A stretch of 64,000 nucleotides of DNA from Batkoa obscura (Eukaryota). The position numbers and the translations under genes are program-made. The stretch spans positions 496,001-560,000 of the forward strand of contig JASVEC010000011.1 of the NCBI GenBank assembly GCA_030770535.1. Reading direction: 5' to 3'. Every line of letters starts with the position of its first letter. The first letter of the stretch is position 1. The notes beneath the pieces were generated by a model. The model was given only the letters and a program-made list of their open reading frames with translations. It made no database searches and was not told the origin of the DNA. Shown one piece after another: positions 19,035 to 56,800 of the stretch.

Positions 19035-22000
19035 TCACATTGCTGATTTGAGAAACTTGGCATGGACTCGGTTATATATAACGCTTGTTCGTTTATGTTT
19101 AATTGAATAGCTATCATACAAGTGTTTATGTATGACTTCATATGGTCCATCCCATTTCAATGCTAGTTTATTTTTTCTAGATTGATTATAGGAAGGGTAC
19201 AGATGAACGATATCACCTACTTTGAAGACAGCTAGACGAGGAAGTCGAGAAATGTCTTGTCGATACCTCCTTGTTTTCGAGTCTGTCAATGCATTAAAGG
19301 CGTCAACTTGGATAGCTATTAGTTTTTTTGTTAGCTTAAGCAAGTACATGTCAGGACTCATCTCTTCTTGTCTAACTATCAAAGGAGCGAATGATATGGG
19401 GAGTCCCGGATGTCTCCCATAAAGCATAACAAAAGGGGATTTTTTGGTAATACTATGTACTGAATATCTATATGCTAAAATAGCAGAATGTAGATATTCA
19501 TCCCAAGAGCTAGTTTTATCGAAAGCCAGCTTCCTTAATATACGTACTAGTGTACCGTTTACTCTCTCAACCATTCCGTTAGTTTCAGGATGATATGGAG
19601 CTGCAGTAGAATGCTTTATGGCCATTAGTCTAGCTAATTTCGGGAGAACCAGGTTAACAAAATTGGCAGCGTTATCAGTAAGTATCACCTGAGGGCTTCC
19701 ATGCCTACAAATAATATCCTCGTATATAAATTTAGATATGTGAAAGGAAGTCTGATTTGGTATTGCTTTTGCTTCAACCCACTTAGTTAGATGGTCGATA
19801 GCTACAACAATAAATTTGTTCCCTCTTACCGAGGAGGCCTCACAGAGAGGACCTATTACATCTATACTTACCGTGTGAAATGCATGTTTAGGTAAAATAA
19901 ACTTATAGGCTGTAGCTTTTATTTTACTTTGTTCCCTCTTGCAAACATCGCAATTATTTATAAAGTCTTCCAAATCTGGTATCATTGATTCCCAATAGCA
20001 GGAGACTTTCATAGTATCGTATGTTTTTTGGAAGGCTGAATGTCCACAGATTACATCATGGAATTGTTGGCATGCAGATAGTCGTGAAGAAGGCCTAATA
20101 TATGGAATATATGTTCCCTTAATCTTTTTATACAAGGCATTATCTCTTACAATGATATTTTGAGCGTTTTTCTCAAGCCATTGTTTGAGTTCAGGCTGCT
20201 GCTGCGGCCATTTATCTTTATTACCCAATAGATTGTACAAATCATCATCTATGGGGGTAGCTAGACAAATTCTGGGTAACCTGCTAAGCCCATCTGCATT
20301 TTGATGATCTTTACCTGGTTTATATACTATATCAAAACTATACGATTGTAGTTTTAGAGCCCACCTAGCTAAACGTCCTTCAGGATTAGTGATTGAATAC
20401 AACCATTTTAGGGAAACATGATCAGTAATAACAGTAAAGTGAGTGCCGTAGATATACGGTCTAAATGCCTTTATAGCATGAATAATTGCAAGGCATTCTT
20501 TCTCTGTTGTAGTGTAGTTCCTTTCGTGTTTCGACAAGGTCCTAGAGGTATAGGCTATTGGGTGTTCACAATTGTTATCATCGAGTTGACTTAAAACACC
20601 TCCAACTGCAGTTAGACTAGCGTCAGTATGTAGTGAGAAGGGCTTTGAGAAATTTGGAAACATCAATACTGGGGCGTTAAGCAGCTTGTTGCGAAGCTCT
20701 TCAAAAGCTTGTTGGTGTTCTTCCTTCCATTGAAACTTGACTTCTTTCTTTAGTAATTGGAACAGTGGGGTAGCTAAATTCGAAAAGTCTTTTATAAACC
20801 TTCGATAATAATTCATTAATCCAAGGAATACTTGTACCTCCCGCATCGTAGTTGGGGGGAGAAGCTCCTTCACTGCATCTAGTTTATTTGGAATAGGGGC
20901 TAGTCCTTTGTCAGAGACTTTATAGCCTAGAAATTCCAAACTAGTTTGGAAGAATGAACACTTCTTTGGTTTTAACTTTAGATTGGCTTGACGGAGGCGC
21001 TCAAATACTGCTTTAAGATGAGTTAAGTGATCTATAAAAGTTCTTGAAAACACATTCAAGTCATCTAAGTAAATTAATACGCACGAAAGTTTAAGGTCAC
21101 CTAGTGTATTATCCATAAGACGCTGGAATGTAGCGGGAGCGTTCGAAAGGCCTTGTGGCATCCTAGTTGGTTGAAATAGTCCTTCAGAAGTTATTAAAGC
21201 GCACTTTTCTTGGTCTTCTGGATCCATTTCTACCTGCCAGTATCCTGAGATTAAATCCATTGCTGAAAAGTATTTAGCACCTTGTAATCGGTCAACCGCA
21301 TCGTCTATTCTGGGTAGAGGGTATACATCTTTCTTTGTGATTTTGTTAAGCTTTCTATAGTCCATAACTACTCTATTAGTTCCATCTTTTTTCTTAACGA
21401 TCATAAGGGGGGAGGCCCATGGACTATTTGAAGGAATGATTAAACCTAGCCTTAAGAGTTTTTGAACTTCTTCTCGTTCTGCTTTGAGTTCAGATTGAGA
21501 TTTACGATATGCTTTAGTTGCGACGGGTAATGAATCACATGTATATACTTTATGTTTAGTATTGCGAGCGCAACCAATATCTTCTTCTGAAGTTGCGAAT
21601 ATGTCTTTATATTCCTCCAGCAATTTATAAAATTGGAGTTGTTCATCTTGGTTTAGATGGTTAATAGTGTCTTTTTCCACAAAAAGGGCTTGGTTATTTG
21701 GGGCCTCTTCGTGAATTTGAAATTCTTCTAGTGTTGCAAATTTACTGAAAGTATTAATCAAGGCGTTGTTTTCTACGTATATCGTGCCAATCTGTTGGCC
21801 TCTAGAGATATTGATTTCTTTTTTGGTAATGTTTGCAAGTAATAACTTGATAGTCTCATTCATGTTGTTGCCTAAAATTCCGGGCATAGTTAGTGGTTCT
21901 AATTGTGAGACACCTTCTATACTATATATAGATAAATGGAATTCCTTAGGTATCCATAGTGAGATCTCAGTATCTAATACTATCTGTGACTTAGGCGGTA

Positions 22001-23057
22001 TTAATAAGTTCTTAGGAGAAATAACGGGAATTCCAGACTGTTTATATGCTATCTCCGGATATTGATGAATTACGGATTCTGATCCGCAGAGAGTGACATC
22101 AATTAATTTATTGTTGGTCCGATAGTTCATTATACGGCAGCCAGGAGATTTATTGTTTATCATATTGATAGATAGGTCTCTTGGTTTATTGTAGTACATT
22201 GGGATGGATTGATCTAATATTTTTAAGATATTTTGATCGTACAACAATTGACAACCGTGTTTCACAAAGAATTCGGTGCCTAGGAGGAAGTCATAACCTT
22301 CACTTTCTAATACTATTGCTGGAAAGGCTAAGGTTAGTTTTCCAAATTTGATTGGTATTGATGAGTATGCTCCTAGTGCTGTAGTAGTTCCAGTTCCAGC
22401 TGTACCAAAGGTGTCTGAGCAATCTATATCTGGTTTAAAGGATAATCGTTTTACCAGACGACTCGATATGAAATTGATAGGAGCTCCACTATCTAATATG
22501 ATGCGTACATTCTTTTTATAAATTGACGCATTGATGTAAGTACAATCGATGGAGTTAGCTTTGTCATCGAGGTTTACTAAAAGAATCTGTTTATTTGGAT
22601 TCTGGTATTCTCTAATAATTTTTCTAAATGCAATTGCTAAGTCTGATTCTCCAGTTAAGATCTTGTCTAGCGGGATTGGGATCGTAACATTGGTTAACCA
22701 CTGATGCGTGTTATCTAGTTCGCTTTGTGTGAGGGATAGTTTAGATAAATCAGATAATTGTGAGATGTAAGGTTTGGAGATCTCGTTCATTGGAATCGAA
22801 TCAGGAGCATTAATAGAGTTATCAGGTAGCTTGAAAATTCGAGGTGGAATGACTTTAGGGATTTCCACAACAGGGACTTTTTTCTTTTTAGGTCTACCAC
22901 GAATTCGCGAAGGAAGTGCTAGGATGAGGGTAGAGGGGTCAAATTTTGAAAGCGTATTAAATTTAAGGTCTAATCCAGTGCTTTCATCTGGATCAGGAGG
23001 AATTTTTAACTTCGTGGAAGGGGGATCCTCATTTATCCTCCCACTTAGAAGTTTTTT
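19035..23057 (-). CDS. pol: Pol (protease, dUTPase-like domain, RT, RNase H, integrase), probably expressed as a Gag-Pol fusion by -1 frameshift
   Basis: ILDSGA, YLDD, LHTDAS, HHCC zinc finger, DDE core, WDGPY; frame is open from the AAAAAAC site at the end of gag. Confidence 0.95.
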   Translation of the reverse strand, partial: KKLLSGRINEDPPSTKLKIPPDPDESTGLDLKFNTLSKFDPSTLILALPSRIRGRPKKKKVPVVEIPKVIPPRIFKLPDNSINAPDSIPMNEISKPYISQLSDLSKLSLTQSELDNTHQWLTNVTIPIPLDKILTGESDLAIAFRKIIREYQNPNKQILLVNLDDKANSIDCTYINASIYKKNVRIILDSGAPINFISSRLVKRLSFKPDIDCSDTFGTAGTGTTTALGAYSSIPIKFGKLTLAFPAIVLESEGYDFLLGTEFFVKHGCQLLYDQNILKILDQSIPMYYNKPRDLSINMINNKSPGCRIMNYRTNNKLIDVTLCGSESVIHQYPEIAYKQSGIPVISPKNLLIPPKSQIVLDTEISLWIPKEFHLSIYSIEGVSQLEPLTMPGILGNNMNETIKLLLANITKKEINISRGQQIGTIYVENNALINTFSKFATLEEFQIHEEAPNNQALFVEKDTINHLNQDEQLQFYKLLEEYKDIFATSEEDIGCARNTKHKVYTCDSLPVATKAYRKSQSELKAEREEVQKLLRLGLIIPSNSPWASPLMIVKKKDGTNRVVMDYRKLNKITKKDVYPLPRIDDAVDRLQGAKYFSAMDLISGYWQVEMDPEDQEKCALITSEGLFQPTRMPQGLSNAPATFQRLMDNTLGDLKLSCVLIYLDDLNVFSRTFIDHLTHLKAVFERLRQANLKLKPKKCSFFQTSLEFLGYKVSDKGLAPIPNKLDAVKELLPPTTMREVQVFLGLMNYYRRFIKDFSNLATPLFQLLKKEVKFQWKEEHQQAFEELRNKLLNAPVLMFPNFSKPFSLHTDASLTAVGGVLSQLDDNNCEHPIAYTSRTLSKHERNYTTTEKECLAIIHAIKAFRPYIYGTHFTVITDHVSLKWLYSITNPEGRLARWALKLQSYSFDIVYKPGKDHQNADGLSRLPRICLATPIDDDLYNLLGNKDKWPQQQPELKQWLEKNAQNIIVRDNALYKKIKGTYIPYIRPSSRLSACQQFHDVICGHSAFQKTYDTMKVSCYWESMIPDLEDFINNCDVCKREQSKIKATAYKFILPKHAFHTVSIDVIGPLCEASSVRGNKFIVVAIDHLTKWVEAKAIPNQTSFHISKFIYEDIICRHGSPQVILTDNAANFVNLVLPKLARLMAIKHSTAAPYHPETNGMVERVNGTLVRILRKLAFDKTSSWDEYLHSAILAYRYSVHSITKKSPFVMLYGRHPGLPISFAPLIVRQEEMSPDMYLLKLTKKLIAIQVDAFNALTDSKTRRYRQDISRLPRLAVFKVGDIVHLYPSYNQSRKNKLALKWDGPYEVIHKHLYDSYSIKHKRTSVIYNRVHAKFLKSAM

Positions 23058-25561
23058 GACTCGTTATCGGAGTCGACAAACTTCTCAGTATCATCGCCTT
23101 CAGTATCGTTATAATTGAGGTGATTTATTTGTTTATTTTTATTGAAACGTTCATTGTTGCGAACATTCTTTTCGAAATAATATTTAAAAATACCATTTTC
23201 TGGCTTTGGTTCAGTGCAGTTAACGGTAATGTGTCCATATTCACCACAGTTCCAGCATCCAGTAAATACTCGAGATTTACGATGGTTGGAGTAGTGTTGT
23301 TGAGTGATGGTAAAACAATGAAGGTATTCGTTGTTGTCCATCCCTTTATCTATGTGATTAACATATAATTTCTTGGGTCTAACTTCACTTTTTGGACTTC
23401 CAAGGTATAATTCTAAAATCTCTATCATCTGTGTAACGTTGGTGATGTTATGATGAGGATCTAGAAAAAGGCATGCGATATGACTTGGAAGGTTTCGCTG
23501 GAAGGCCAGGCGGAGGTCTGTAACGCTTAACTTTCCACAGGAAATTAAGGCATTAGCACGATTTCTTACGTTTGTAATGAAACTCTCAAGTTTACTTTCG
23601 TCGTCTAAACGTAAAGATAAGAGGGCTGCCTTTTTTGCTTCCATTTTTACATCGGAATCATAATGGTCTATAAACGCCTTTTTGAAGGAATCCCAATTAC
23701 TGCGTAAGTCGTCAGGTAAAGTCATGCACCAAGAAAGTTCATTTGTTTGTAGTTGACCTAAAAGGCATTGAGGACGACATTCATAGGTCCAGTTGTTGGC
23801 ATCGAGATGAACTTCTAGAGCTTTAATGAAGGTAGTAGCAGTAATTTCACTTGGATTGAATAAAAGACTAAAATTAAACTTTGTGTTAACAGGTTGGGAG
23901 CTTCTTGGGTAGTTGTGGCGGTGTGTTGAGAAGCTATGTGATTTTGGATCGTTACCAGAAGGTCCAGGATGACTAAAATAAGCGTCATGGGTATTGTGTG
24001 ATATACCATGATCATGTTGAACAGTAATCGGATCGGCTTGTACATAGTGAGGTGAAGATTTCTCATAGGATATATGTTGAGCGATTTGAGGAGCAATATG
24101 TGATGACTTATTTTTGTTAAAAGGATTGGCTAAGTTGACTTCAGCATAAGATTGTACACGAGGTCGTATTGGATCAGCGTTAGATCCTGTAGCAGGATTT
24201 CTTGAGTAAATACCATCAGTAGGTACAGCAGTCATTCTAGGATTTGATTGGGGTAGGTATGTGGAAACTTGAGGAGAGTTCTCTTCTTTCTTTGTTTGAT
24301 CATCCGGTTGTACCAAGTGAACAGAACCATGATACTTATGGTTTATTTGATATTCAGTACCAAAGATAGATTCTGTGGCACTATCACCCAGATCATATAT
24401 ATTGTATCTTGGAACGTCTCTGTAACTCGAGAGTCTGGAGGGAGGTGCTGAAACAGCAATACGCTCCTTTCTACAATTGCAAGAAGATGCCTTGATTTGG
24501 TTAGTATTGGAAGCTACCTTAGTCTGAAGAAGAATGAGCTCTTCTCTGGTACTCTGTATGTTACGCGAGATTTCCTCCCAGTCAACTACTGTTTGTTCTT
24601 TGTCCAGTCTAATTTGTTCCTTCAAATTATTATTGGAGGTGATAAGCTGGCTAATGGTAGTCACTTGTTGAGCCATTTGTTCATTACAAACAGCTAAATC
24701 TTGTTCTAAAGCCAAGATTCTAGCATCTTTGGTTGAAGTAGATGGAGGGGATTGTTCAATACAGGATAAGCGGTGATTATACTCTTTGAATTTATTCATT
24801 AGCGATCTATGGAGTTCTGCGAAAGTGGCTTTTGTTTTTCCGTCGATATCTGAGATTCTTTCAGTAGTATGGTCATTGATCTCAGTGAGGGAAAGGTTGA
24901 TCTCATCGGAGATTTTAACAAGTTCAGAATGTAGAGCAGTATCGAGCTGACGTAATTCAGCTTTGAGATCTCCTACTTCTCTTACTAATTCTCTGTGGGC
25001 TTCATAGGTAACGGTGTTATTAAGTCTTTGATTGAGCTCATTTAACTTACTAACATGGAGTTCATTTGAAGGGGCGATGACACCACTCTTTTGGTTACTG
25101 ATCATGGAAAGGTTGTTAACCGTAGCTAAAAGTGAGCTCAAAGAGGTAGACAATTCATTGTTATGAATTGAAAGACGGTCGAGTTCACCAACCATCTGGA
25201 TGAGTTTGTTGTGCAGGAACTCTACTAGATATTGTTGAACGTGGGAAAGGGTAGGTACCGTTTGGTACTGGGCACGAAAATTGATTTGAGTACTGGAGCC
25301 ACTATTTTGGTATTGTCTCCAAGCGGAGAGGTCACCATCAAGGACGTGCATAGGGACAGCTCCGTAGGTAACGACTGAGTTTACAACGTGAGGAGGTAGT
25401 GCAGCTTGATTTAAAGCAGCAGTTTCTATTTCTGGGGTCAGAACACTAGCTTCCTCTTCATCACTACTACCCATGTCGTATTCAGTGATGATCAACTGTT
25501 GACGGTTATCAAGAAGGTATTTTGAGTCCGCAAAATAAGGTGCAAGACCATTGTCGACCAT
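23045..25561 (-). CDS. gag: Gag, 838 aa, with N-terminal coiled coil and C-terminal CCHC knuckle
   Basis: CWNCGEYGHITVNC; capsid-like WDSFKKAFIDHY; lies between PBS and pol. Confidence 0.92.
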   Translation of the reverse strand: MVDNGLAPYFADSKYLLDNRQQLIITEYDMGSSDEEEASVLTPEIETAALNQAALPPHVVNSVVTYGAVPMHVLDGDLSAWRQYQNSGSSTQINFRAQYQTVPTLSHVQQYLVEFLHNKLIQMVGELDRLSIHNNELSTSLSSLLATVNNLSMISNQKSGVIAPSNELHVSKLNELNQRLNNTVTYEAHRELVREVGDLKAELRQLDTALHSELVKISDEINLSLTEINDHTTERISDIDGKTKATFAELHRSLMNKFKEYNHRLSCIEQSPPSTSTKDARILALEQDLAVCNEQMAQQVTTISQLITSNNNLKEQIRLDKEQTVVDWEEISRNIQSTREELILLQTKVASNTNQIKASSCNCRKERIAVSAPPSRLSSYRDVPRYNIYDLGDSATESIFGTEYQINHKYHGSVHLVQPDDQTKKEENSPQVSTYLPQSNPRMTAVPTDGIYSRNPATGSNADPIRPRVQSYAEVNLANPFNKNKSSHIAPQIAQHISYEKSSPHYVQADPITVQHDHGISHNTHDAYFSHPGPSGNDPKSHSFSTHRHNYPRSSQPVNTKFNFSLLFNPSEITATTFIKALEVHLDANNWTYECRPQCLLGQLQTNELSWCMTLPDDLRSNWDSFKKAFIDHYDSDVKMEAKKAALLSLRLDDESKLESFITNVRNRANALISCGKLSVTDLRLAFQRNLPSHIACLFLDPHHNITNVTQMIEILELYLGSPKSEVRPKKLYVNHIDKGMDNNEYLHCFTITQQHYSNHRKSRVFTGCWNCGEYGHITVNCTEPKPENGIFKYYFEKNVRNNERFNKNKQINHLNYNDTEGDDTEKFVDSDNESKNF

Positions 25562-25690
25562 AGTTGAGAATTAAGGAGGTTAAGGGGGTTTTTCTTTGTT
25601 TGGGGTGGTTACGCGGTAAGGACCGTAAAGGAAAGATTATAAAGGCTATCTAAAATAGTTATAAGAGCTTTCCCAGTTATGAGCGCCAAA

Positions 25691-31750: not shown

Positions 31751-33163
31751 TTAGTTTACTTTGTCACCAAGACTACTGTCAATTTTTACATCTGGGCTTA
31801 AAATCACCCCAGTAAACTCCTTGCGTTGAATACAGGCTGGATAATATTTCAAAGTTTTATTTTCGTATTGTTTGTATTGATCTATTAAGGTAGCATTATT
31901 TACGACCTTTTCAACGTTTTCAACCAATGTATCTAACTTGCTATTTTCATTTTTTATGATTTCTGTTTTTACAATTTTCCAAAAACGCTCCATTGGGTTA
32001 AGAAATAAAGAGTAAGCTGGCAATTTTATGTATTCAATTCCTTTTTTGTTTATGCTATCTTTGATTTCATCTGATAAGTTATAAATTGAAGTATTCCCCA
32101 TAATAAAAACCGCTTTGGAATTAGCCTCGAATATGTCTAGAAGATTAGTTAAAAAATTATGGAATTTTTCACCATTATATCCATTTTTCCTCAATCCTAC
32201 TATATTATCAAGTTCATAATGTATCACACCTCGTTTGCTACTAATTGCCGCTACTAGAGTCAATGAAGTTAAATATTTACCATGTGTAGTTTTATAAGCT
32301 ACAGTAGTATCTTCCAAAATTCCAAATTTTCGGACTAAATCTAAATTAAAAAACAACTTATCAATCCAAATTTTTTCGGAATCTGCATATTTATCCATAG
32401 CATTTGCAAATTCAAAACGTTGTTCAATAATATCTTGAGTATTCCACTTCTTTGGGATTAGTTTAGTTTCTTTCCAAACTGTATCTAAATTTTTCAAGAT
32501 GGTAGAAATAATATTTACTTTTAAGTCACCAAAGTTATTATCATATAAATGCTGGTGGATTTTTTTATAACTTAAACTACTACTATTTTCAACAAAAATA
32601 CCGGCTTCAACTACCATATCATTATTAATTATTTTGTTTACAGGAGGAGGACGTGATCCTTTAGGAATGCCCTGTACATTAAGTGCCCTATTCAAAGTAG
32701 ATTTGTTGAGATTATAAAGTTTACACGCTTCTATTTGAGTCATTTCACACTGAGTAACTTTTTCAACTGCTATTTTTAATGTTTCTCGATCAACTTTTTG
32801 TCTCTTAGCTGGTTTACTACTTGGGCTTTTAACTAGTTTACTACTTGAGCTTTTAACTGATTTACTGCTTGAGCTTTCAACTTGTTCTCCCTTTTCTTCT
32901 TTACTAACAACAACGTCTAGTTTATTTTGTTCCTCTTTAAGCCGATCATTTAAAAGTCTATACTCAATTTCTTCTTTAGTTGTTTTGTTAAGCAAATATT
33001 CATACACGCCGTAAAGTTGGTTTGCTTTATCGAGCATTTCTTTATACTTAACGTAAAATATGTCAGTTTCTTTTTTGTTTTCGGCGATTTTCCTCTCATA
33101 CTCTTGCATGTTCGCTTTTATTTGCTGCACTGATTCTTCCAAGATTTTACGTTCAGGAGTCAT
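31751..33163 (-). CDS. IS630/Tc1-mariner transposase-derived protein (coiled coil, Psq-like HTH, degenerate DDE domain)
   Basis: MTQIEACKLYNLNKSTL HTH; WIDK, FIMGNTSIY and LPAYSLFLNPMERFW correspond to the D, D and E motifs; open 470 aa. Confidence 0.8.
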   Translation of the reverse strand: MTPERKILEESVQQIKANMQEYERKIAENKKETDIFYVKYKEMLDKANQLYGVYEYLLNKTTKEEIEYRLLNDRLKEEQNKLDVVVSKEEKGEQVESSSSKSVKSSSSKLVKSPSSKPAKRQKVDRETLKIAVEKVTQCEMTQIEACKLYNLNKSTLNRALNVQGIPKGSRPPPVNKIINNDMVVEAGIFVENSSSLSYKKIHQHLYDNNFGDLKVNIISTILKNLDTVWKETKLIPKKWNTQDIIEQRFEFANAMDKYADSEKIWIDKLFFNLDLVRKFGILEDTTVAYKTTHGKYLTSLTLVAAISSKRGVIHYELDNIVGLRKNGYNGEKFHNFLTNLLDIFEANSKAVFIMGNTSIYNLSDEIKDSINKKGIEYIKLPAYSLFLNPMERFWKIVKTEIIKNENSKLDTLVENVEKVVNNATLIDQYKQYENKTLKYYPACIQRKEFTGVILSPDVKIDSSLGDKVN

Positions 33164-34018
33164 TAAAATTTGAAATTGTATAAAAATTAAATTACCAGTT
33201 TGAATAAAAATTAGCTAATAAATAAATATCACCCAATTCTATGATGAAACTTTTCCAACAAGTTTACAGAATTTGTCAAACATAATTTTTTTTGCCCAGA
33301 AAAGATCCAAGTTGCAATTTTGACTATTTGGGGCACAACTAATTTTTGAATTCAATGGTTGGCCTTAACTATAGCTATATTAAAATATCTCAACCAATAG
33401 ATTAGCTTTCAAAAATAAGGGATAATCACCACCTTTAATTTATTTTTTTCCTAACGTTTAATATTTTACAATATTTAGATAACTATTTTTTTACCTAAAA
33501 CTTGGCTTTTCAATTAAAATATATGTAAATATATACTATAGTGTTTGATGTTTTACCCTTGTAATAGTTTTAATACATTATCTAAATTATTGAGATTTAA
33601 ACTTTGTCAGCATTTAATCAATTTTCAAGGATTGGTTTTATTGGCTAAATATCTTTGGTATGGCAGTAATGAAATTCAACTAAAAGAGTTGGTGGGCTCT
33701 GCTTATCTGCGTAAGTGAATGGGCTGAATAGTCAAACTAGAGCAGGGTAAGCTAGATAAATGGTATATAATTGCATTTAAATTGAACTAAGCTATATTTT
33801 ACTTTTATAAATAATATTCTATTTCTTGGCAAATAGCCTTACATTACATTATACACTTTACACTACCTTTGAATAAAAATCTCAACTTTAAAGTAATAAC
33901 CTATAGTAAGAACAGATAAAAAATAGCCAATCAAAGAGCCGTTATTGTGGGAGAGATTGATTACAAAGGGATGAAACTAAAGGATCAAGAAATGTATCCT
34001 TTATTTTATAAACTAAAA

Positions 34019-36336
34019 ATGGCTGCATTGGGATGGGATAAAAATCAAATCTTTAGTACTTCAACTAAACAAAATGGCGATTACAATGAGAATGACTCGG
34101 ATGCTTTAAAAATTGAACAGAAATTTTTAAATTTTATTGAAGGCTTTAGACAAGATAATCTCTATGTTTATAGGTAATTTGATGTTTTTAATATTAACAT
34201 TTGACTTAACTTTTATACATCTAAATAGAGATCAATTGGTAAGCAATATTAAGATGAGATATTTCGGACTTAACGTCTACATCACTGATATTATTAGTCA
34301 CAATGATAAACTTGCGCAAGAAATGCAAGATGATCCTAATGAGTATTTAAAATGTTTTGAGGCAGCAGTAACTGAAGCTGCAAAAAAATTAAAAATAAAT
34401 GAAGAGTATTCAGATGAAATTGATCTGCCTGTTAGGGTACCACAATTTCAAGTCGTGCTAAAAAGTACTAGCACCATGCAATATATTAGAGATCTTAATG
34501 CAAACACTATTGGTAAATTAGTTAAGATAACTGGTATTGTAATTTCAGCATCATCTTTAAGTTCAAAAGCAACTAGTTTATTTATCAGATGTAAATCTTG
34601 TGGCCATAGCAAGCGCTTGCCGGTTAGAGCAGGTATTTCTGGCGTTCAGATACCACGCAAATGTGACAATGAAGCCAAAGAAGCTAATCAAGAAGCATGT
34701 CCTTTAGATCCCTTTACAATTGATCATGACAGATCTTTATTTGTGGACCAGCAAACCTTAAAATTACAAGAAGCTCCTGACATGGTCCCAGTTGGTGAAC
34801 TTCCAAAATATTTATTATTATCAGCTGATAGATGTTTAGTAAATCAAGTTGTCCCTGGTACAAGAGCCACAGTTATTGGTATTCATTCCGCATTTGATTC
34901 TTTTTCAAAAAATAACAACGGCAAGCAGTCGGCCACTCGTACTCCTTACTTGCGTTTAGTTGGTTTGAGCACTGATATAAAAGGATTAAATCGTGGTGTA
35001 ATTAGCTTCACTGATGAAGAAATCAGCAGTATGGAAGAAATATCACGTGAGCGCAATCTTTATGAAAAGCTTGCTAAATCTATCGCTCCTTCTATTTATG
35101 GATCAGAGGATATTAAGAAAGCAATTGCATGTTTGCTATTTGGAGGGTCTTTAAAAAGACTACCCGATGGCATGCGGTTACGTGGTGATATTAACGTACT
35201 TATGTTAGGTGATCCTTCGACTGCTAAATCTCAGCTATTGAAATTTACAGAAAGGGTAGCACCCATTTCAGTTTATACTTCTGGTAAAGGTTCTTCTGCT
35301 GCAGGTTTAACAGCTTCTGTAGTAAGAGACCCTAGTACAAGAGAATTTTATTTGGAAGGTGGAGCTATGGTCTTAGCTGATGGCGGTGTAGTATGTATTG
35401 ATGAGTTTGATAAAATGAGAGATGAAGATAGAGTTGCTATTCATGAGGCTATGGAACAACAAACTATTTCTATAGCTAAGGCAGGTATTACCACTATGCT
35501 TAATTCACGTACCTCAGTATTAGCAGCGGCAAACCCAATTTATGGTAGATACGATGATTTAAGGACACCAGGAGAAAATATTGATTTCCAAACAACTATT
35601 TTATCAAGATTCGATATGATTTTTATCGTTAGAGATCTTTTGGATAGGGAAAGAGATATTACAATCGCTAAGCATGTGATGAATATTCATCTTAACAAAA
35701 GTGTTAAAGAAAATAACCAAGATGGCGATGTTTTTGATATTAATAAGATGAAGAGATACATCGCTTTTTCTAAAACCAGATGCTCTCCAAGACTTTCTCC
35801 AGAAGCAGCAGATGCATTGGCTACAAATTTTGTAGAGCTTAGAAGCACAGTATCAAAGCATGAAGCTGAATTAGAGCAGCGTTCACCCATTCCAATAACT
35901 ATACGGTAATATATTTATTCAATCAAAGTAATTAGTTAATTAATTTGTTTTTAGTCAATTGGAAGCTATTATAAGAATTTCTGAATCATTGGCTAAAATG
36001 ACTTTATCACCATTAGCAACAGTAGATCATGTCAAAGAAGCAGTAAGATTGTTCCAAGCATCCACAATGCAAGCAATTGGAGGGGATGTGGAGGCTAATA
36101 GTTATCAAGGACTTGGTAGAAAGGATGTATTGGAACAAATGCAAAAAATTGATAGAGAAATTCGAATGATAGTACCATTAGGAAACACCACTTCAGTCCA
36201 AAAACTTAAGAATGAAATTGGCTCCATAGGTGAATATAGTGATATTGTGATTGATAGAACCATAAACAATCTTGTAAGACAAGAGGTTTTACAATTCCGT
36301 AACTTTAGAAAAACTGTTTTCCGTGCAAAGCCTTAA
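34019..36336 (+). CDS. MCM5: MCM5 helicase subunit; join(34019..34173,34229..35905,35955..36336)
   Basis: GDPSTAKSQ, YTSGKGSSAAGLTA, IDEFDKM, ILSRFD, IPITIRQLEA; CPLDPF and MVPVGELP typical of Mcm5; two GT-AG introns. Confidence 0.95.
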
Positions 36337-36471
36337 ATAACATATTTTATTGAACATAGTTATATTTTAGTTAACTATTAGCCATCCTATTTAAAATCCA
36401 ACTTAACCAATAAAATGTGGCTTTACTAAATTTAAATAATTTATTTTTTGATTTTTGATTTTCTTTTTAAA

Positions 36472-37077
36472 ATGAGTGAAAATACTAATAACAAAAATCA
36501 AAAAGATAACAATAATGATAAGAATGATAGTGGAGTAAATATATTGGATCAACTAAAGGTAATCTATTGTTAAATGTAATAATATACCATTTCGACACCA
36601 AGTCTTTAAATTTATTTATCAAAAGATATTAAAGCCTTATTAGTTTATTTTTTAATAATATAGGAGATTAAACTTTCAGACTTTAAAAATATATTCCAAA
36701 TACCATGTACAAGGACAGGTCTATTATATGGGGTAGGGGGTGGTATGAGTTTAGGTTTATTACACTTCATGATTAGTTGGAAGCGTAAGGGAGCAATATT
36801 AAAAGAATTTATAAATTCTAAAACAGTAATGGCATCATGTCATAGAGCGGTTGGTGGTTTTGCGTTTGTATCAATCCTTTCATGGTATTTTTAATATAAG
36901 TATATATATATATAATACTAAGTTTATAGGGAAAAATGTAAGTATGATAGGAAAGTTGCAGCTCAAAAAGTTCAATTGGTTGCTGAACAATTCAAAAGAA
37001 TGGAGAAGAAAAGAGCAGAAAAAGAAAACGAAAAAGAAGAAAAAAACGTCGACTCTACGAACAGTACCAATACATAA
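36472..37077 (+). CDS. COX20: COX20-like cytochrome c oxidase assembly factor; join(36472..36558,36664..36884,36930..37077)
   Basis: Spliced translation IPCTRTGLLYGVGGG...AVGGFAFVSILSWEKCKYDR matches the Cox20/FAM36A pattern; missed by the ORF track. Confidence 0.8.
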
Positions 37078-37517: not shown

Positions 37518-38334
37518 ATGAAGTTTCTTAAACCAGGAAAGGTATGGAGGAAAAACAAAAGACAATCAATATAGAATAACAATATATAAAACTGAAGAAA
37601 TAAAGTCGAAACTTATTAAAAATAATCAAAGAGGAAATTGGACTAAAATTAATCAACTAGGTCGCCATTGTTCTCAAAGGACGTTATGCCGGTAAGAAAG
37701 TTGTTATTGTAAAAAATACCATATAAACTATTCACAAAAGCTAAAAGCTGAATTTGAAACTCAAAATTTAATGCATCCAACTCATGATTCCGGGTAATTA
37801 TTTGATGGATGCATTTCATTTATTTTTTATATTTTTTTTATATTTTTTTTTGGAATTGCGAGTTCCATATGACTACGATTTTTTTATTTTTTTTATATAA
37901 ACACATAACGACGATGGAACTAAAGAACATCCTTACGGTCACGCCGTTGTTGCTGGAGTTGAAAGAACCCCACTCACCGTTACCAAATATATGAGCGAAA
38001 AGAAGATCGCCAGACGTACTCGTGTCAAAGCTTTTGTTAAAGTTGTTAACTACAACCACATTATGCCAACTCGGTAAAAAAAAACAAAGAGTATAATTTT
38101 AACTTTCACTAATAGCTTATAGTTATGGACTTGAATTTGATAACCTTAAGAAGCTTGTTAATGCTGATGCTATTGCTGAACCAACCAAGCGTAAGGAATC
38201 CAAGAAAGCCGTTCAAAAAGCTTTCCAAGAACGGTAAGTCGTTTATTAAACTATTATAATTATGTATATTTAAATCTTTCTATAGTTTCAAGAGTGGTAA
38301 AAACAAGTGGTTCTTCACCAAGCTTCGTTTCTAA
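37518..38334 (+). CDS. RPL27: 60S ribosomal protein eL27; join(37518..37541,37661..37715,37905..38073,38123..38233,38286..38334)
   Basis: [26 protein letters not shown]...[13 protein letters not shown]...[10 protein letters not shown]...[12 protein letters not shown]; introns 1, 3 and 4 are GT-AG, intron 2 is non-canonical. Confidence 0.93.
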
Positions 38335-44132: not shown

Positions 44133-47100
44133 TCAAAGTGATTGGTTTTGAACCAAAGATGTATAGAAGCCATTAAGCGTTAGAAGCTCATCATGAGTAC
44201 CCATTTCTACTTTTTTACCATTTTTCATAACAATAATTATATCAGCATCTTGAATAGTGGATAAACGATGAGCAATGGTAATTGTAGTTCTACCTTCCGA
44301 AGCTTTATCTAAAGCATCTTGTACAACTTTTTCAGATTGGGAATCTAAAGCAGATGTAGCTTCATCTAATAGCAATAATTTTGGATTCCTAATAAGTGCT
44401 CTAGCAATAGCTACTCTCTGTTTTTGACCACCTGAAAGTCTACCTCCACGCTCACCACATGAAGTATCATAACCATCTGGGAGATCCATGATAAAATCAT
44501 GTGCATTAGCCATTTTAGCTACATGAATAATTTCTTCTTTTGTGACATCTCTTTCTACTCCATAAGCAATGTTATCCATAACTGAAATATTGAAAAGCAC
44601 AGGTTCTTGACCAACGGTAGATAATTGACTTCTTAAATAAGGTACATTCCATTCACTGATATCCTGGCCTTCAACTTCAAGCTTACCAGAATCAAGTGTA
44701 TAGAACATTTGGATAAGGCCAATGATAGTTGATTTTCCAGACCCAGAAGAGCCAACTAAAGCTACTTTTTTATTTCTAAGTACTTCTAAATCTAATCCAT
44801 TTAATACCTTAGTATCGGGTCTGGATGGGTAAGAGAAATGAGCATTTTTACTTAAAACATCACCATAAAGCTGCTTGTTTTTATTGCCATAAGCATCTGA
44901 TTGATTGATTTTGGGTGTACGGTCTAAAAGACTAAATACCTCATTTGCTGCAACTTTAGATTTAACAAAAGAAGTCAATTCGCTAGAAGCATACCCAAAA
45001 GAATTTCCCATAAACATAATTGCAGTGACCACTTGAAACATATTGTTGTAGCTATATTCCTGATTAATTACTAAGGTGGTACCATACCAAAATAGTAAAG
45101 CGTTGATGAAATGAGGGATTCCCATAGCAAATGAGTACCCTATCGCCGATTTGAGATAGCCAATTCTAGAAGTTTTGTGAGCTTTTTCAACTCTTTCTAA
45201 ATAGTCCTCGAAGAAAAGATTCTCTCTGTTTAATGAGCTAACAGTACGCTTATTAAGAATAGATTCCATAGCGAGTTGAGACACTTTCAAATAGGCAAGC
45301 TTTGTTTTCTCATTGACATCAGATAAAGCGGAAACTTGAACAAGTTGTCCATAAATGGTAAGTGGGGCAGTGGCTAATGCAACTAAAGTGAGTTTCCACC
45401 CACTAGAGAAGGCAATACTCAAACTAGCGATGGCACAAGACAAAGCACTAAAAATTGGCCCTAAAAACTTGCCAACCAAGCCTTGAACATTTTCAGCCTC
45501 AGTTGATAGTTTACCAGTGATAATTCCAACCGAATTCTCGGGAGCATCATAAAAACCAACTTCTTGGGTTAGTAAAGAACGAAAACATTTTTTACGAATT
45601 TCATAAGTAAGATACTCTCCTAACGTATTGAAACCAGCGTATCGCATAAAACCAGCAATTAAGCAACCAATAGCTAATGTTAGGAACATAAGGGACCAGA
45701 AGTTGATATCATTCTGTCCTTTTTCTATTAATCCTGGAGTAGTCAAATGAAAAAATGATTGCGTTGCATTAGTAAGAAAAATTGAATACATAGGGAATGC
45801 AATGCCATCCAATAACGCGCCGATAGCACCAACAAGTCCAAAATACCAATATGGTGATATCATTTTTAAGCATCTCATTAATGGGATTGAGACTTTCCCT
45901 TTGTTCCTTCTGCTCTCAATTAGTTCCTTCGGAAGGGTCTCAACTCGACTTGTCATCTTAAATAAGCCCACATCTAACTCTTTAATATCCTCAATATCCT
46001 CAATATCTATTACTATTTCCTCTTCACTAGTGCTTTCAATAACTATATCGTCGTCTTCGGTTACTTCTTCTTCTCCACCTTTTCTAATTTCCTGTTGTTT
46101 TACCAAATTAGCATAAGCGCCATTAAGTGCAAGTAATTCGTTATGGCTTCCTTCTTCAATAATAGTACCCTTATCGAAAACAATAATTTTATCTGCTTTT
46201 TTAATAGTAGATAAACGATGAGCAATCACAATAGTTGTTCTATCTTTAGCAGCATTATCTAATGCTTTTTGAACAATTCTTTCTGATTCAGTATCTAAAG
46301 CTGAGGTGGCTTCATCAAGTAATAATATAGTTGGATCTTTAATTATAGCTCTAGCAATAGCTATTCTTTGCTTTTGCCCACCACTTAATTGAGACCCACG
46401 ATCACCAACCATAGTATCATATTGTTGTGGTAATTTCATGATAAAATCATGGATGTTAGCTAGTTTACAAGCATTTACAACACGATCATGTAATTGTTTA
46501 GCATCAGCTTTAAACTCATCATCGTTCTTTAAACCAAATAAGATGTTCTGTTTAATGGTGGTACCAAACAAACATGGTTCTTGACCTACTAAGCCAACAT
46601 GTTCTTTTAAGAATTTATTTGAGATTTGAGAGATATCTATTCCATCTAACAAAACTCTTCCAGATGTTGGTGCATAAAATCTTTCTATCAATCCAACACA
46701 TGTACTTTTACCACTACCAGAATGACCAACTAAAGCAACTGTTTGTCCTTTTGATGCTTCAAAGCTAATACCTTTAAGGATCTGGACATCCAGTCTAGAT
46801 GGGTAACTGAATTGTACATTTTCAAATGTTATATTCCCTTTTACTGGTGACATTTTAGATTGATTTTTCACATGTTCCTCAGTTATTAAAAATGGATCAA
46901 TGCTTGATTCTCTTTCAATGATTTCGAATAGTTTAGTAGCAGCACCTTGTGCTGTAGCAACTGCGGTAATAGAAGGAGAAGCCATACCTAATACCATGGA
47001 ACCAGTTAGCACATTAAAGAATACTGTTAACACATCACCGGCATCTTGCTCCCTGTCATGAATTAATTTACCGCCATACCACATAGCTAAAGCGTAGCTT

Positions 47101-47984
47101 GAAAACGTTATAAGCAAAAAGATGCCATTACCTAAGCCCGTAAAAAAGGCCTTACGAAAGCCACTTTTACGAGCCATCTGTAATTTATTTTCGTATCTAA
47201 TTTGTTCTTTTTCCTGAGTGTTGAACGAATATATTGTTTTTATAGCAGATAATACTTCTTCAGCTATTGATCCTGCTTCACCATATACCCCTTGTCCGCC
47301 TTTAGAAGAATCTGCTACCGTTTTACCTATCAAAATACCCGCAAGTACTAACAACGGTACTGAACTTAACATCACTAAAGTTAATTTCCATCCTTTTATA
47401 AAAGCTATAACAAAAGCACCAATAAAACAAGTAATATTTTGTATAAGCATCCCAATTTTATCAGATATACCATCTTGTACCATATTGATGTCACCAGCTA
47501 TGCGTGAAGCAATGTCACCTGAGGAGATAGAATCAAACCAACCCATTTCTTGGCTTAAAACTGAACGATAATATTTATTTCTAATCCTCACAGCTTGACT
47601 TTCACCGACTATTAGCCAAAGTGATAGCTGTAAGTAAGCAGCAATTGCTGTGACACTTCCAGCTACAACAAACATAATGCATAAGAAGTTGATTTCGTCT
47701 TTCAATATTGCATCAGCAAGATCTGGGCTGACAGGATAGTTTTTTTGATAATTGCCGAACAAGCCAATAATCTGAGAAAACAATAGAAATAAGAAAGGTT
47801 GAGATAGACCATTGATAATAGAAGCTAACATAGCTAAACCAATTATTATTTTATCATTTTTTGTTGCAAATTTAAACAGTTTGAGCAATGGTACGTTTGG
47901 AGTTTTCTCTTTTTTCTCTTCTAACCCAATGCCCTTTTCATTGACTCTATTTTCATTCTCGTTCTTTTTCTTAGCTTTAAACAT
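44133..47984 (-). CDS. ABCB1/MDR-type ABC transporter (paralog 2)
   Basis: Same TMD-NBD x2 architecture and motifs; 1283 aa. Confidence 0.97.
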   Translation of the reverse strand: MFKAKKKNENENRVNEKGIGLEEKKEKTPNVPLLKLFKFATKNDKIIIGLAMLASIINGLSQPFLFLLFSQIIGLFGNYQKNYPVSPDLADAILKDEINFLCIMFVVAGSVTAIAAYLQLSLWLIVGESQAVRIRNKYYRSVLSQEMGWFDSISSGDIASRIAGDINMVQDGISDKIGMLIQNITCFIGAFVIAFIKGWKLTLVMLSSVPLLVLAGILIGKTVADSSKGGQGVYGEAGSIAEEVLSAIKTIYSFNTQEKEQIRYENKLQMARKSGFRKAFFTGLGNGIFLLITFSSYALAMWYGGKLIHDREQDAGDVLTVFFNVLTGSMVLGMASPSITAVATAQGAATKLFEIIERESSIDPFLITEEHVKNQSKMSPVKGNITFENVQFSYPSRLDVQILKGISFEASKGQTVALVGHSGSGKSTCVGLIERFYAPTSGRVLLDGIDISQISNKFLKEHVGLVGQEPCLFGTTIKQNILFGLKNDDEFKADAKQLHDRVVNACKLANIHDFIMKLPQQYDTMVGDRGSQLSGGQKQRIAIARAIIKDPTILLLDEATSALDTESERIVQKALDNAAKDRTTIVIAHRLSTIKKADKIIVFDKGTIIEEGSHNELLALNGAYANLVKQQEIRKGGEEEVTEDDDIVIESTSEEEIVIDIEDIEDIKELDVGLFKMTSRVETLPKELIESRRNKGKVSIPLMRCLKMISPYWYFGLVGAIGALLDGIAFPMYSIFLTNATQSFFHLTTPGLIEKGQNDINFWSLMFLTLAIGCLIAGFMRYAGFNTLGEYLTYEIRKKCFRSLLTQEVGFYDAPENSVGIITGKLSTEAENVQGLVGKFLGPIFSALSCAIASLSIAFSSGWKLTLVALATAPLTIYGQLVQVSALSDVNEKTKLAYLKVSQLAMESILNKRTVSSLNRENLFFEDYLERVEKAHKTSRIGYLKSAIGYSFAMGIPHFINALLFWYGTTLVINQEYSYNNMFQVVTAIMFMGNSFGYASSELTSFVKSKVAANEVFSLLDRTPKINQSDAYGNKNKQLYGDVLSKNAHFSYPSRPDTKVLNGLDLEVLRNKKVALVGSSGSGKSTIIGLIQMFYTLDSGKLEVEGQDISEWNVPYLRSQLSTVGQEPVLFNISVMDNIAYGVERDVTKEEIIHVAKMANAHDFIMDLPDGYDTSCGERGGRLSGGQKQRVAIARALIRNPKLLLLDEATSALDSQSEKVVQDALDKASEGRTTITIAHRLSTIQDADIIIVMKNGKKVEMGTHDELLTLNGFYTSLVQNQSL

Positions 47985-48524
47985 GTTTATTAATTAAATT
48001 TGATATTCTGTAATAGACTTTTCATTTGTTTTTATACACTCATTTCAGTCACTGAATATAATGAATATTTGACTATATTTGGCTCCTTTAAAGTAAACAA
48101 TTGTAATTATAAATTCAAGTGCCTATATTCTAAGCACCGAAAATCATACCCCGAAGCCCAAATTTACCCAAATTTAACAGGCGATTCTTGCCCAAATCCT
48201 CTACAACTCTATTTTAAATTTTCTAACCGATGAAGAGTTATTCCGGCAAGAGTTCTTTATTATTCTTCTAGTTGATTTTGTATATATGATAACTGAAATT
48301 AAGCAATAAATAGATAGAAAGGCCTTCCTCATCTTTTAAAATCAATTGGTTATTAATAAAAGATTGAAAATGACATATGATAGCCTTATATGACCTTTTT
48401 GCCTTATTAAATTACTGCCAATGGTGTGATAAATGATTTCGGCTTGTATAAATCATTATTTTGTTTAAAACGCTTGGTTATTTTGGGAAAAACAATAAAA
48501 TATCAATCAACAACACTTTAATAT

Positions 48525-52462: not shown

Positions 52463-53875
52463 ACATAGTCTCTTTGATAATGATTGGCTTGCACAAAAAA
52501 ACAAATATTGATTTGTTAACATGTAGCCACAGAAAACCATCAAACTCTCCCCTTAGCTATCCCTAGCACTAGCCCTAGCCGCGACAAAAAGGATTTATTT
52601 GTTAAATCAAAACAAATCAGAGTTGCTAAATTCCAAATTTACTATCCTCTAATTGATTAGTTTGCCATAACTATGAAGCTACAATAGAGTTACATTCAGA
52701 TTTTCCCAAAATTTAAAGTTTATCCATTTTGTAAAAAAGCGCTAGCAAGCATCATTATTTGAGTTATATAAAAATTAAGCTAAAAAACAGCATATCAAGG
52801 TTACTCATAAGCAAAAAAATACAGTATTTATTACAAATATATAAACATTAACAAAATAGAAGAAAACATTTTAAAAGTGTGGTTAAAGCTTAAGAACTAA
52901 AAATAAAGTTGCTTTTATGCAACTAATTTATAAAAGCTGAAATTTAAAAAATTACTAATTTTAGGAACCTTAAAGCATTACAAGTTAACACAGATAAATA
53001 ACAGTTTAGTGTTTATATGCTAAAATTATTAATGTTTCTGAATATATGTAAAGGTATATAATAACATATGTGCTTATCCTTTAAAAGATACAACTTTGGG
53101 AGGTTTGTTTTAATTTTATATTATACATCCTCTATTCACTTCCTTATTTTTTAGTTATATTAAATGATATTATATATATCTTCAGTGTTAATATAAATAA
53201 ATTAAAGTTATGTGAAATTCTCACAAGCTAATAAAGTTCTAAAATTTAACTCTAGTAAAAAAACGAACTTTAATTTAAAAGATTCTTATAAAGCGAAATT
53301 AATAAAAAGAAGAAGCCATGAAACTATCTAATTCCAACACATTGAAGTGTTGGTAAATAATATTTAATATTTTGCTCTAAATAAGTAATAGTTTTTAAGC
53401 AAAACAACGATTTGTATAAGCTGAAGTTATTTAGCATACTATTGGGCACAATTCAATAAGGTAAAAATGCCATACAAGGCTATCTCATATGTCATTTTCA
53501 ATCTTTTGTTGATAATCAATTGATTTCAAAGGATGAGAAAGACTTTTCTACCATTTGTTATGTAACTCTATTTATCATATATACAAATGTACCTAAAAGA
53601 ATAATGAAAAATTCTTACAAGAATAGCTCTTTATTGGCTAGAAAGTTTAAAATGAAATAAGTAGAAACATTAGATAAGAACTCTCGATTAATTTTGGCTC
53701 TCGGCTAATGTCTTTCGGAACTTAGAAGTCACGCACTTCTACTTAGTATAATAGCGGCTTTGTTTTAAATAAAAGTATTGAATATAGTAAATTATTGATT
53801 ATACTCAGTGACTGAAATGAGTGTATAAAAACAAATGAAAAGTCTATTACAGAATATCAAATTTAATTAATAAAC

Positions 53876-56800
53876 ATGTTTAAAGCTAAGAAAAAGAACG
53901 AGAATGAAAATAGAGTCAATGAAAAGGGCATTGGGTTAGAAGAGAAAAAAGAGAAAACTCCAAACGTACCATTGCTCAAACTGTTTAAATTTGCAACAAA
54001 AAATGATAAAATAATAATTGGTTTAGCTATGTTAGCTTCTATTATCAATGGTCTATCTCAACCTTTCTTATTTCTATTATTTTCTCAGATTATTGGCTTT
54101 TTTGGTAACTATCAAAAAAACTATCCTGTCAGCCCAGATCTTGCTGATGCAACATTGAAAGACGAAATCAACTTCTTATGCATTATGTTTGTTGTAGCTG
54201 GAAGTGTCACAGCAATTGCTGCTTACTTACAGCTATCACTTTGGCTAATAGTCGGTGAAAGTCAAGCTGTGAGGATTAGAAATAAATATTATCGTTCAGT
54301 TTTAAGCCAAGAAATGGGTTGGTTTGATTCTATCTCCTCAGGTGACATTGCTTCACGCATAGCTGGCGATATTAATTTAGTACAAGATGGTATGTCCGAT
54401 AAAGTCGGTCTTCTTATACAAAATATTACTTGTTTTATTGGTGCTTTTGTTATAGCTTTTATAAAAGGATGGAAATTAACTTTAGTGATGTTAAGTTCAG
54501 TACCGTTGGTAGTATTTTCTGGTATGCTACTAGGCATAATGGTAGCAGATTCTTCTAAAGGCGGACAAGGGGTATATGGTGAAGCAGGATCAATAGCTGA
54601 AGAAGTATTATCTGCTATAAAAACAATATATTCGTTCAACACTCAGGAAAAAGAACAAATTAGATACGAAAATAAATTACAGATGGCTCGTAAAAGTGGC
54701 TTTCGTAAGGCCTTTTTTACGGGCTTAGGTAATGGCATCTTTTTGCTTATAACGTTTTCAAGCTACGCTTTAGCTATGTGGTATGGCGGTAAATTAATTC
54801 ATGACAGGGAGCAAGATGCCGGTGATGTGTTAACAGTATTCTTTAATGTGCTAACTGGTTCCATGGTATTAGGTATGGCTTCTCCTTCTATTACCGCAGT
54901 TGCTACAGCACAAGGTGCTGCTACTAAACTATTCGAAATCATTGAAAGAGAATCAAGCATTGATCCATTTTTAATAACTGAGGAACATGTGAAAAATCAA
55001 TCTAAAATGTCACCAGTAAAAGGGAATATAACATTTGAAAATGTACAATTCAGTTACCCATCTAGACTGGATGTCCAGATCCTTAAAGGTATTAGCTTTG
55101 AAGCATCAAAAGGACAAACAGTTGCTTTAGTTGGTCATTCTGGTAGTGGTAAAAGTACATGTGTTGGATTGATAGAAAGATTTTATGCACCAACATCTGG
55201 AAGAGTTTTGTTAGATGGAATAGATATCTCTCAAATCTCAAATAAATTCTTAAAAGAACATGTTGGCTTAGTAGGTCAAGAACCATGTTTGTTTGGTACC
55301 ACCATTAAACAGAACATCTTATTTGGTTTAAAGAACGATGATGAGTTTAAAGCTGATGCTAAACAATTACATGATCGTGTTGTAAATGCTTGTAAACTAG
55401 CTAACATCCATGATTTTATCATGAAATTACCACAACAATATGATACTATGGTTGGTGATCGTGGGTCTCAATTAAGTGGTGGGCAAAAGCAAAGAATAGC
55501 TATTGCTAGAGCTATAATTAAAGATCCAACTATATTATTACTTGATGAAGCCACCTCAGCTTTAGATACTGAATCAGAAAGAATTGTTCAAAAAGCATTA
55601 GATAATGCTGCTAAAGATAGAACAACTATTGTGATTGCTCATCGTTTATCTACTATTAAAAAAGCAGATAAAATTATTGTTTTCGATAAGGGTACTATTA
55701 TTGAAGAAGGAAGCCATAACGAATTACTTGCACTTAATGGCGCTTATGCTAATTTGGTAAAACAACAGGAAATTAGAAAAGGTGGAGAAGAAGAAGTAAC
55801 CGAAGACGACGATATAGTTATTGAAAGCACTAGTGAAGAGGAAATAGTAATAGATATTGAGGATATTGAGGATATTAAAGAGTTAGATGTGGGCTTATTT
55901 AAGATGACAAGTCGAGTTGAGACCCTTCCGAAGGAACTAATTGAGAGCAGAAGGAACAAAGGGAAAGTCTCAATCCCATTAATGAGATGCTTAAAAATGA
56001 TATCACCATATTGGTATTTTGGACTTGTTGGTGCTATCGGCGCATTATTGGATGGCATTGTATTCCCTATGTATGCGCTTCTTCTAACCAATGCAACGCA
56101 ATCATTTTTTCATTTGACTACTCCAGGATTAATAGAAAAAGGACAGAATGATATCAACTTCTGGTCCCTTATGTTCCTAATATTGGCTATTGGTTGCTTA
56201 ATCGCTGGTTTTATGAAACATGCTGGTTTCAATACGTTAGGAGAGTATCTTACTTATGAAATTCGTAAAAAATGTTTTCGTTCTTTACTAACCCAAGAAG
56301 TTGGTTTTTATGATGCTCCCGAGAATTCGGTTGGAATTATCACTGGTAAACTATCAACTGAGGCTGAAAATGTTCAAGGCTTGGTTGGCAAGTTTTTAGG
56401 GCCAGTTTTTGGTGTTTTATCTTGCGCCATCGCTAGTTTGATTATTGCCTTCTCTAGTGGGTGGAAACTCACTTTAGTTGCATTAGCCACTGCCCCACTT
56501 AATGTTTATGGACAACTTGTTCAAGTTTCTGTACTATCTGATGTCAATGAGAAAACAAAGCTCGCTTATTTAAAAGTATCACAAATTGCTATGGAGTCTA
56601 TTCTTAGTAAGCGCACAATAAATTCACTGAATAGAGAAGCCATATTTTTTGAAGATTATTTAGAAAGAGTTGAAAAAGCCCATAGAATTTCTAGAAAAGG
56701 TTATCTTAAATCGGCGATAGGATATTCATTTGCCATGTGTATTCCCCATTTCATCAACGCTCTATTGTTTTGGTATGGCACCATTTTAATTATTAGTCAA

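Follow-up and report, generated by a model that had tools for sequence, protein, structure and literature searches.

According to the accessible text of Sheth et al. 2006 (PMC1557818), there are U2-type AT-AC (type II) introns, such as those of human SCN4A and SCN5A, that have AT-AC ends, neither a U12 donor nor a U12 branch site, a pyrimidine tract before the acceptor and a strong ATAAGT donor (the donor also given for this type in the visible part of PMC5029451), and a G+1>A change is rescued by G-1>C. The accessible portion of Gould et al. 2016 (PMC5029451) describes an AT-AC intron nested in RPL30 of Saccharomyces cerevisiae, a yeast without U12; its donor is off-consensus and unlike both types, its removal yields 1-2% of messages and is unproductive, and its mechanism is left open, with a spliceosome-free nuclease and ligase among the options raised. 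As far as the accessible parts of PMC2846911 and PMC10639083 go, early-diverging fungi (Rhizopus, Phycomyces, Rhizophagus, Basidiobolus) have phase-1 U12 AT-AC introns with YAC acceptors, ribosomal protein genes (S13 in Mucorales) are among those with U12 introns, and the Mucorales examples in the PMC2846911 supplement keep ATATCCTT and, near the acceptor, TCCTTAAC. Minor-like, hybrid and non-canonical introns with intermediate signals are read by Olthof et al. 2024 (PMC11347168, accessible part) as stages of minor-major conversion; the visible part of their species table includes Basidiobolus and not Conidiobolus, Neoconidiobolus or Entomophthora, and Conidiobolus coronatus is covered by PMC10639083 and PMC8280824 in the portions available. 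No RPL27-type flank (six flank spellings) occurs among the U12 introns in the accessible part of the PMC2846911 supplement, and an AT-AC intron in a fungal RPL27 was not found in the literature searched, which left most subscription journals outside.

The window, a 64,000-nt stretch of AT-rich eukaryotic DNA, contains an RPL27 gene (eL27, Pfam PF01777) whose five exons encode 135 amino acids and a stop codon, and whose second intron has AT-AC ends. The parts of the gene are:

37518..37541, + strand: exon 1, coding part MKFLKPGK (translation)
37542..37660, + strand: intron 1, GT-AG, 119 nt (joint in run X6; intron mapping)
37661..37715, + strand: exon 2, last bases ATT GTA AAA A (translation; contig joints)
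37716..37904, + strand: intron 2, AT-AC, 189 nt, phase 1, within the Asn27 codon (translation; DNA contigs; junction contigs)
37905..38073, + strand: exon 3 (translation; match to P0001)
38074..38122, + strand: intron 3, GT-AG, 49 nt (contig joint)
38123..38233, + strand: exon 4 (translation; contigs)
38234..38285, + strand: intron 4, GT-AG, 52 nt (contig joint)
38286..38334, + strand: exon 5, through the stop codon (translation)

The intron 2 cut falls after base 1 of the Asn27 codon, with ATACCATA as the intron's first letters and TAAACAC at its end. The 45 printed residues of the spliced product match P0001, annotated as eL27 of Neoconidiobolus thromboides, and exon 3 is 100% identical to eL27 of N. 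thromboides FSU 785, 82% to that of Entomophthora muscae and 78% to that of Massospora, so that the sequence points to N. thromboides or a very near relative within Entomophthorales; the junction is already implied by the annotated P0001, the annotators' data likely having held it unremarked. Upstream, at 34019-37070 (+), RPL27 is adjoined by an MCM helicase subunit gene (Pfam MCM), which we take to be MCM5, and by a small four-exon gene, presumably COX20-like. Elsewhere the window contains an LTR retrotransposon at 19035-25570 (-) in the order protease, RT, RNase H, integrase, which also matches dUTPase weakly (24 bits against a cut-off of 22) between protease and RT; three ABC transporters, each a single ORF of about 1285 amino acids, at 8594-12448 (+), 44133-47993 (-) and 53867-57727 (+), the last two near-identical and pointing apart like an inverted duplication; an intact DDE_3 transposase with an HTH domain at 31751-33214 (-); a single-ORF trypsin-family protease with a hydrophobic N-terminus at 296-1099 (+); and two tRNA-Ile(AAT) genes at 4910-4982 and 62202-62274 (-).

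Eight of 24 listed public sequencing runs were compared with the locus, all as contigs, and six were informative, the intron 2 site being uncovered in X3 and X4. X1 and X2 are DNA runs of other strains, differing at 47 and 48 places over 1.2 kb; RNA is the guess for X5 and X6 and DNA for X14, and X16 is unlabelled, none being recorded as RNA, and X14 and X16 carry the RPL27 site solely as spliced contigs of mRNA length. The donor is identical in X1 because all three differences of the contig spanning 37642-37828 are placed elsewhere (37725, 37783, 37786), and the acceptor is identical in X2 because all 13 differences of the contig spanning 37891-38431 are at or beyond 38020. Four public runs from four separate studies contain the joint 37715>37905: it is bridged by two contigs in X5 and, in X14 and X16, by one contig of 484 nt and one of 473 nt (57-letter short side, no differences), and in X6 it is seen through overlapping loose contig ends at depths of 5,400 and 10,800. 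Intron 2 (37716-37904), which is present in DNA and absent from transcripts with an exact junction, is a real AT-AC intron excised from RPL27 transcripts. The cut can slide by 3 nt with identical mRNA (registers AT-AC, TA-CA, AC-AT and CC-TA), and AT-AC is the sole register of the four with known spliceosomal ends. No form that retains intron 2 or splices it by an alternative GT-AG pair is listed among the run contigs, from which levels are not measurable. Cover at 37792-37873 in X5, X6 and others was considered as intron retention and rejected as unrelated T-rich sequence with loose ends, and a 190-nt joint in X5, considered as a second junction, was rejected as an error variant with one other letter between.

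The donor and branch comparison given below, together with the junction in four runs, bears out a sequence-only reading that had proposed RPL27 intron 2 as an AT-AC intron fitting neither the U2 nor the U12 consensus. The in-frame TAA at 37898 on which that reading relied is real, and the only AGs within 37716-37930 start at 37739, 37746, 37861 and 37924. Where it had claimed a single in-frame GT-AG alternative, four in-frame pairings were found in the range tested, and its argument that such splicing removes protein sequence extends to all four, which delete 15-29 residues. Its description of intron 2 as the longest in the window holds among the 15 introns mapped, a subset of those in the window (the others are 42-119 nt). 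The U12 donor and branch site that it had called not evident are not seen here either, as the signals of intron 2 indicate:

37706..37718, + strand: 13 nt spanning the 5' junction, identical in the window and in the eL27 gene L083 described below (sequence comparison); putative U1 or U5 site
37716..37723, + strand: donor ATACCATA, 5/8 to ATATCCTT and 3/6 to ATAAGT (sequence against literature consensus)
37770..37815, + strand: predicted hairpin, 10-bp stem of 37770-37779 with 37806-37815 and upper stem of 37784-37789 with 37796-37801 (folding)
37851..37867, + strand: small predicted hairpin holding the last AG of the intron, 37861-37862 (7/500 shuffles; region picked after seeing the fold)
37863..37873, + strand: best branch-site candidate TTCCATATGAC, whose A would be 37869 (35 nt from the end) or 37872 (32 nt) (predicted from sequence)
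37879..37894, + strand: U-rich tract of strain-variable length (deletions at 37879 in X2 and 37887 in X1)
37894..37904, + strand: 3' end TATATAAACAC, acceptor CAC, 10/11 identical to the end of the L083 intron (sequence comparison)

U12 introns have AT-AC or GT-AG ends with YAC/YAG, and the AT...CAC of intron 2 agrees with this subject to the 3-nt register ambiguity; their donor consensus is RTATCCTT (PMC2846911, accessible part), which ATACCATA matches at 5/8 positions, and their branch site is TCCTTAAC, about 10-20 nt before the acceptor; no CCTTRAC occurs anywhere in intron 2. The donor is also not ATAAGT-like, and intron 2 is therefore said to work like a U2-type AT-AC intron and not filed as a member of that type. 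A U tract is present, and the only candidate resembling a U2-type branch motif within 45 nt of the end is ATGAC, no YTRAN being found there. A local U2 reference was provided by 14 GT-AG introns mapped in the window (three by joints and 11 by reading frame; 42-119 nt), including those of the MCM gene and the four-exon gene upstream. These have A at +3 in 13 cases, G at +5 in five, U2 donors here being loose beyond GTA, and C at +4 or +5 in none, whereas intron 2 has C at both; G at -1 is found in 12 of the 14, and all 14 have a YTRAN motif no more than 45 nt before the end; intron 2 has neither. No U11, U12, U4atac or U6atac was found in the 64-kb window with Rfam, and neither intron 2 (in the window) nor the L083 intron contains a snoRNA or known RNA near the Rfam gathering score.

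Compared with the described systems (each as given in the accessible parts of the sources), intron 2 shares AT-AC ends, the lack of a U12 donor and branch site and a tract before the acceptor with the introns of Sheth et al. 2006, but not their strong donor, to which that of L083 (5/6) is closer. It shares a fungal ribosomal protein gene, AT-AC ends and a donor unlike both types with the yeast RPL30 intron; unlike the yeast form, its removal gives the sole full-length form seen and is required to make the protein, and the intron site is common to distant lineages. It shares ends, acceptor and phase with the U12 AT-AC introns of early-diverging fungi but keeps neither of their two conserved signals, and it is like the classes of Olthof et al. 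2024, by description, in its intermediate signals.

The 37770-37815 stem is predicted beyond chance (matched in 7 of 1000 shuffles and equalled by the folds of 2 among 542 GC-matched windows; local z -2.8), and the three changes of X1 in the 5' half of intron 2 leave it intact, 37786 G>A turning a G-U pair into an A-U pair. Intron 2 as a whole is predicted to fold modestly (z -1.8) and the L083 intron strongly (z -4.4). Pairing of the two ends of intron 2, also considered, vanishes when the flanking exons are included (probability 0.002).

A scan of prokaryote genome bins for eL27 gave two loci. One (L082:31-432) is an intronless eukaryote-type eL27 on a 526-bp contig filed under a Tissierella genome and is likely contamination. 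The other, L083, is a eukaryotic contig in a bacterial bin and has a 199-nt frame-breaking insert at the position of intron 2. Near this site, AT-AC excisions alone, among those with AT-AC or GT-AG ends, keep the protein length, either 1409-1607 (the same phase-1 site) or 1411-1609; an in-frame GT-AG reading adds eight residues. The insert is likely an intron, best read from its sequence as AT-AC at the same site as intron 2. Its phase-1 donor, ATATGT, is U2-like (5/6 to ATAAGT), and it holds a branch motif CTAAT 12 nt before the acceptor as well as TTCCCTAAT, 12 nt to the acceptor. The 13 nt shared across the 5' junction include the sole GTA Val codon of each gene (one of 15 Val codons in the RPL27 coding sequence, one of 13 in the L083 part), which creates at 37709 a site resembling a GT donor, 7 nt ahead of the AT that is used; GTA AAA occurs in one of 25 intronless loci with Val-Lys there (62 distinct loci). 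The 10 identities among the last 11 intron bases were reached in 7 of 20,000 shuffles, in a test selected once the match had been noticed, and the shared stem words GATGGATG/CATCCA are within chance (37 of 300 shuffles). The L083 eL27 gene is divergent from a neighbouring PP2A-B56 gene with an ordinary GT-AG intron of about 46 nt, and its closest B56 and eL27 relatives form a long branch; searches of the bacterial bin for U12, U6atac and 18S gave no match and were uninformative.

In a metagenome eL27 alignment scan, 79 of the best 80 of 382 relatives, a choice favouring genes that are intronless here, are uninterrupted at the site; a fungal-type eL27 (L074:1576-1626) carries a GT-AG intron lying 5 nt downstream, which makes a third intron position close by, and human RPL27 probably has a GT-AG intron one base upstream. 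A viral collection gave one weak unrelated eL27 match and no pattern match. Genomic read-through of an AC end would place His at residue 27 of a protein and that of an AG end Asp, and these signatures were sought in 151 proteins (the best 150 of the list and P0032), of which 107 were contiguous with exon 2, 19 had no exon 2, 14 began too close and 11 were unaligned; those with a signature were picked by eye from 33 in the two middle groups, 22 of which were uninformative. His at 27 was found in three proteins (P0168, P0285, P0032), two of them with the LIV-x-x-H spacing of L083, as read from protein only with a query that contained His and of which P0032 was part, one of the 107 intact proteins also having His there. 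Asp after Ile, Leu or Val was found in five fungal proteins (P0179, P0242, P0282, P0302, P0316) that are 72-77% identical to Basidiobolus and that presumably belong to Mucoromycota, and Gln before residue 27, which corresponds to an AG end one base upstream, in P0257, P0309 and P0247. A quick and weak eL27 tree places the L083 group outside chytrids plus terrestrial fungi and near Rozella, where it is unresolved (SH-aLRT 83), joins N. thromboides to Entomophthora and Massospora (SH-aLRT 99), and sets the Asp group apart as a fungal clade of its own (95). Because L083 is read as AT-AC and both AC-end and AG-end signatures occur at the same site, the intron site is likely, from these sequences, as old as fungi.

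We lean, with modest confidence, towards an AT-AC intron, probably derived from a U12 intron, that is now removed by the major (U2) spliceosome. This reading is favoured because the U12 signals are gone, the tract between branch and acceptor is variable, the relatives seen at the site look U2-type (ATATGT and CTAAT in L083; five AG-ended fungal ORFs), and the major spliceosome is known to splice A+1/C-1 introns, although L083 and the signature ORFs are known from DNA or protein alone and L083 can also be read in another AT-AC register, 2 nt away. The loose U2 donors of this fungus and the GTA codon standing at the junction in both genes likewise count in its favour. In U12 introns the spacing from branch to acceptor is short and fixed, in contrast to the strain-variable tract of intron 2, and U1 can bind near a site while U6 and U5 choose the cut. 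On this model the conserved GTAAAA 7 nt upstream would recruit U1, with cleavage at the AT; U5 loop 1 would be held by the run of As in the exon; in place of G-G, the terminal pair would be a non-standard one between the first A and the last C; branching would take place at ATGAC near 37872, followed by the U tract and then the first YAC; and the hairpins would bring the intron's length nearer to the local norm of 42-119 nt. Pairing of exon ends with U5 loop uridines can offset a weak intron start (PMC8283771, accessible part). If this reading is right, a rather probable origin is an ancestral AT-AC intron of the U12 type that lost its inner signals by erosion and kept its ends, since conversion is held to go from the minor to the major type (PMC10639083, accessible part); the ends would have been kept because two changes are required to reach GT-AG and the intermediate would be spliced poorly, in a gene that is essential.

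It is possible, if on the improbable side, that intron 2 is still a minor (U12) intron, removed by a minor spliceosome with diverged or relaxed U11, U12 and U6atac as in Physarum; a divergent minor spliceosome had also been suggested in the sequence-only reading. The AT-AC ends, phase 1, the YAC acceptor, C at +5 and the lack of G at -1 speak for this and, with C at +4 and the lack of a branch motif of the local type, count against removal by the major spliceosome, as do the reported tendency of minor-like introns to depend on the minor spliceosome when they lack -1 G (PMC11347168, accessible part) and the presence of 249 minor introns in Basidiobolus, of the same phylum, where according to the sources in part they are plentiful. 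TTCCATA at 37863 also matches six of the seven first bases of TTCCTTA, and L083 has its TTCCCTAAT. Against it stand the donor and the missing CCTTRAC, a best look-alike branch 32-35 nt off across a tract of variable length, the L083 donor, which is eroded differently and towards U2, and the full consensus kept by the fungal U12 examples in the accessible part of the PMC2846911 supplement; the likeness of AGTTCC.TA between window and L083 is not significant alone, a 9-mer with one mismatch occurring in 248 of 300 shuffles.

Compatible with either spliceosome, and doubtful, is the explanation that the odd ends are kept for feedback, a competing GT(37709)-AG(37862) intron or retention leading to an early stop and eL27 or another hairpin-binding factor shifting the balance. 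In the window as in L083, a GT stands 7 nt ahead of the AT donor and an AG lies upstream of the AC acceptor, use of which gives stops after 67 and 32 codons, and the two introns, each roughly four times as long as is usual, are structured (z -2.8 locally; L083 z -4.4). No such joint and no cover of the intron interior (37751-37791) is listed in X5 or X6, though X5 lists even error-level joints at a depth of 10-40 beside exon joints of 15,000-25,000; decay would hide early-stop messages, and contigs drop rare forms. The suggestion of a weak autoregulatory splice in the sequence-only reading is unsupported by the forms listed, though contigs cannot measure levels.

Removal without a spliceosome, by a structure-guided nuclease and a ligase of the Ire1/tRNA-ligase or Euglena type and possibly in another of the four equivalent registers, is very improbable: neither consensus fits, the ends of both introns can pair in an isolated fold, and the option was raised for yeast, but the pairing is lost in the context of the exons, AG-ended introns occupy the same site in other fungi, the branch and U6-type signals of L083 are standard, and no Ire1-type cleavage loops (a motif taken from general knowledge) are evident. 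Assembly error, a wrong junction or a silent pseudogene can practically be set aside, since, in spite of homopolymer runs near both ends and a comparison of contigs and not raw reads, the donor and the acceptor that the sequence-only reading wished to see checked are confirmed by DNA contigs of two other strains (X1 and X2) and the four runs with the spliced junction (X5, X6, X14, X16), two of them without exon difference, contradict another junction and a silent copy.

The fate of AT-AC minor introns when the minor spliceosome decays, whether loss or conversion, is a long-standing question of which intermediates are rarely caught. What is likely one intron is available at this site in three states: with AT-AC ends and an eroded donor (here), with AT-AC ends and a donor that is U2-like (the L083 lineage), and AG-ended (another fungal group). 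We suggest tentatively that an AT-AC intron of the fungal ancestor outlived the minor spliceosome in at least two lineages with its ends unchanged, and that here the major spliceosome may remove it efficiently without a usable U1 or U6 match at the cut, by way of a U1 site 7 nt into the exon, U5 pairing with the exon As and a conserved fold. Introns of this kind would likely be missed by consensus-based intron classifiers. The intron lies in a highly expressed, essential gene and is therefore easy to assay, and either outcome would be informative: a major spliceosome acting with almost no U1/U6 donor match, or a diverged minor spliceosome in Entomophthorales. If the intron is indeed a relic, it would represent a third route in the fate of minor introns, beside loss and conversion to GT-AG.
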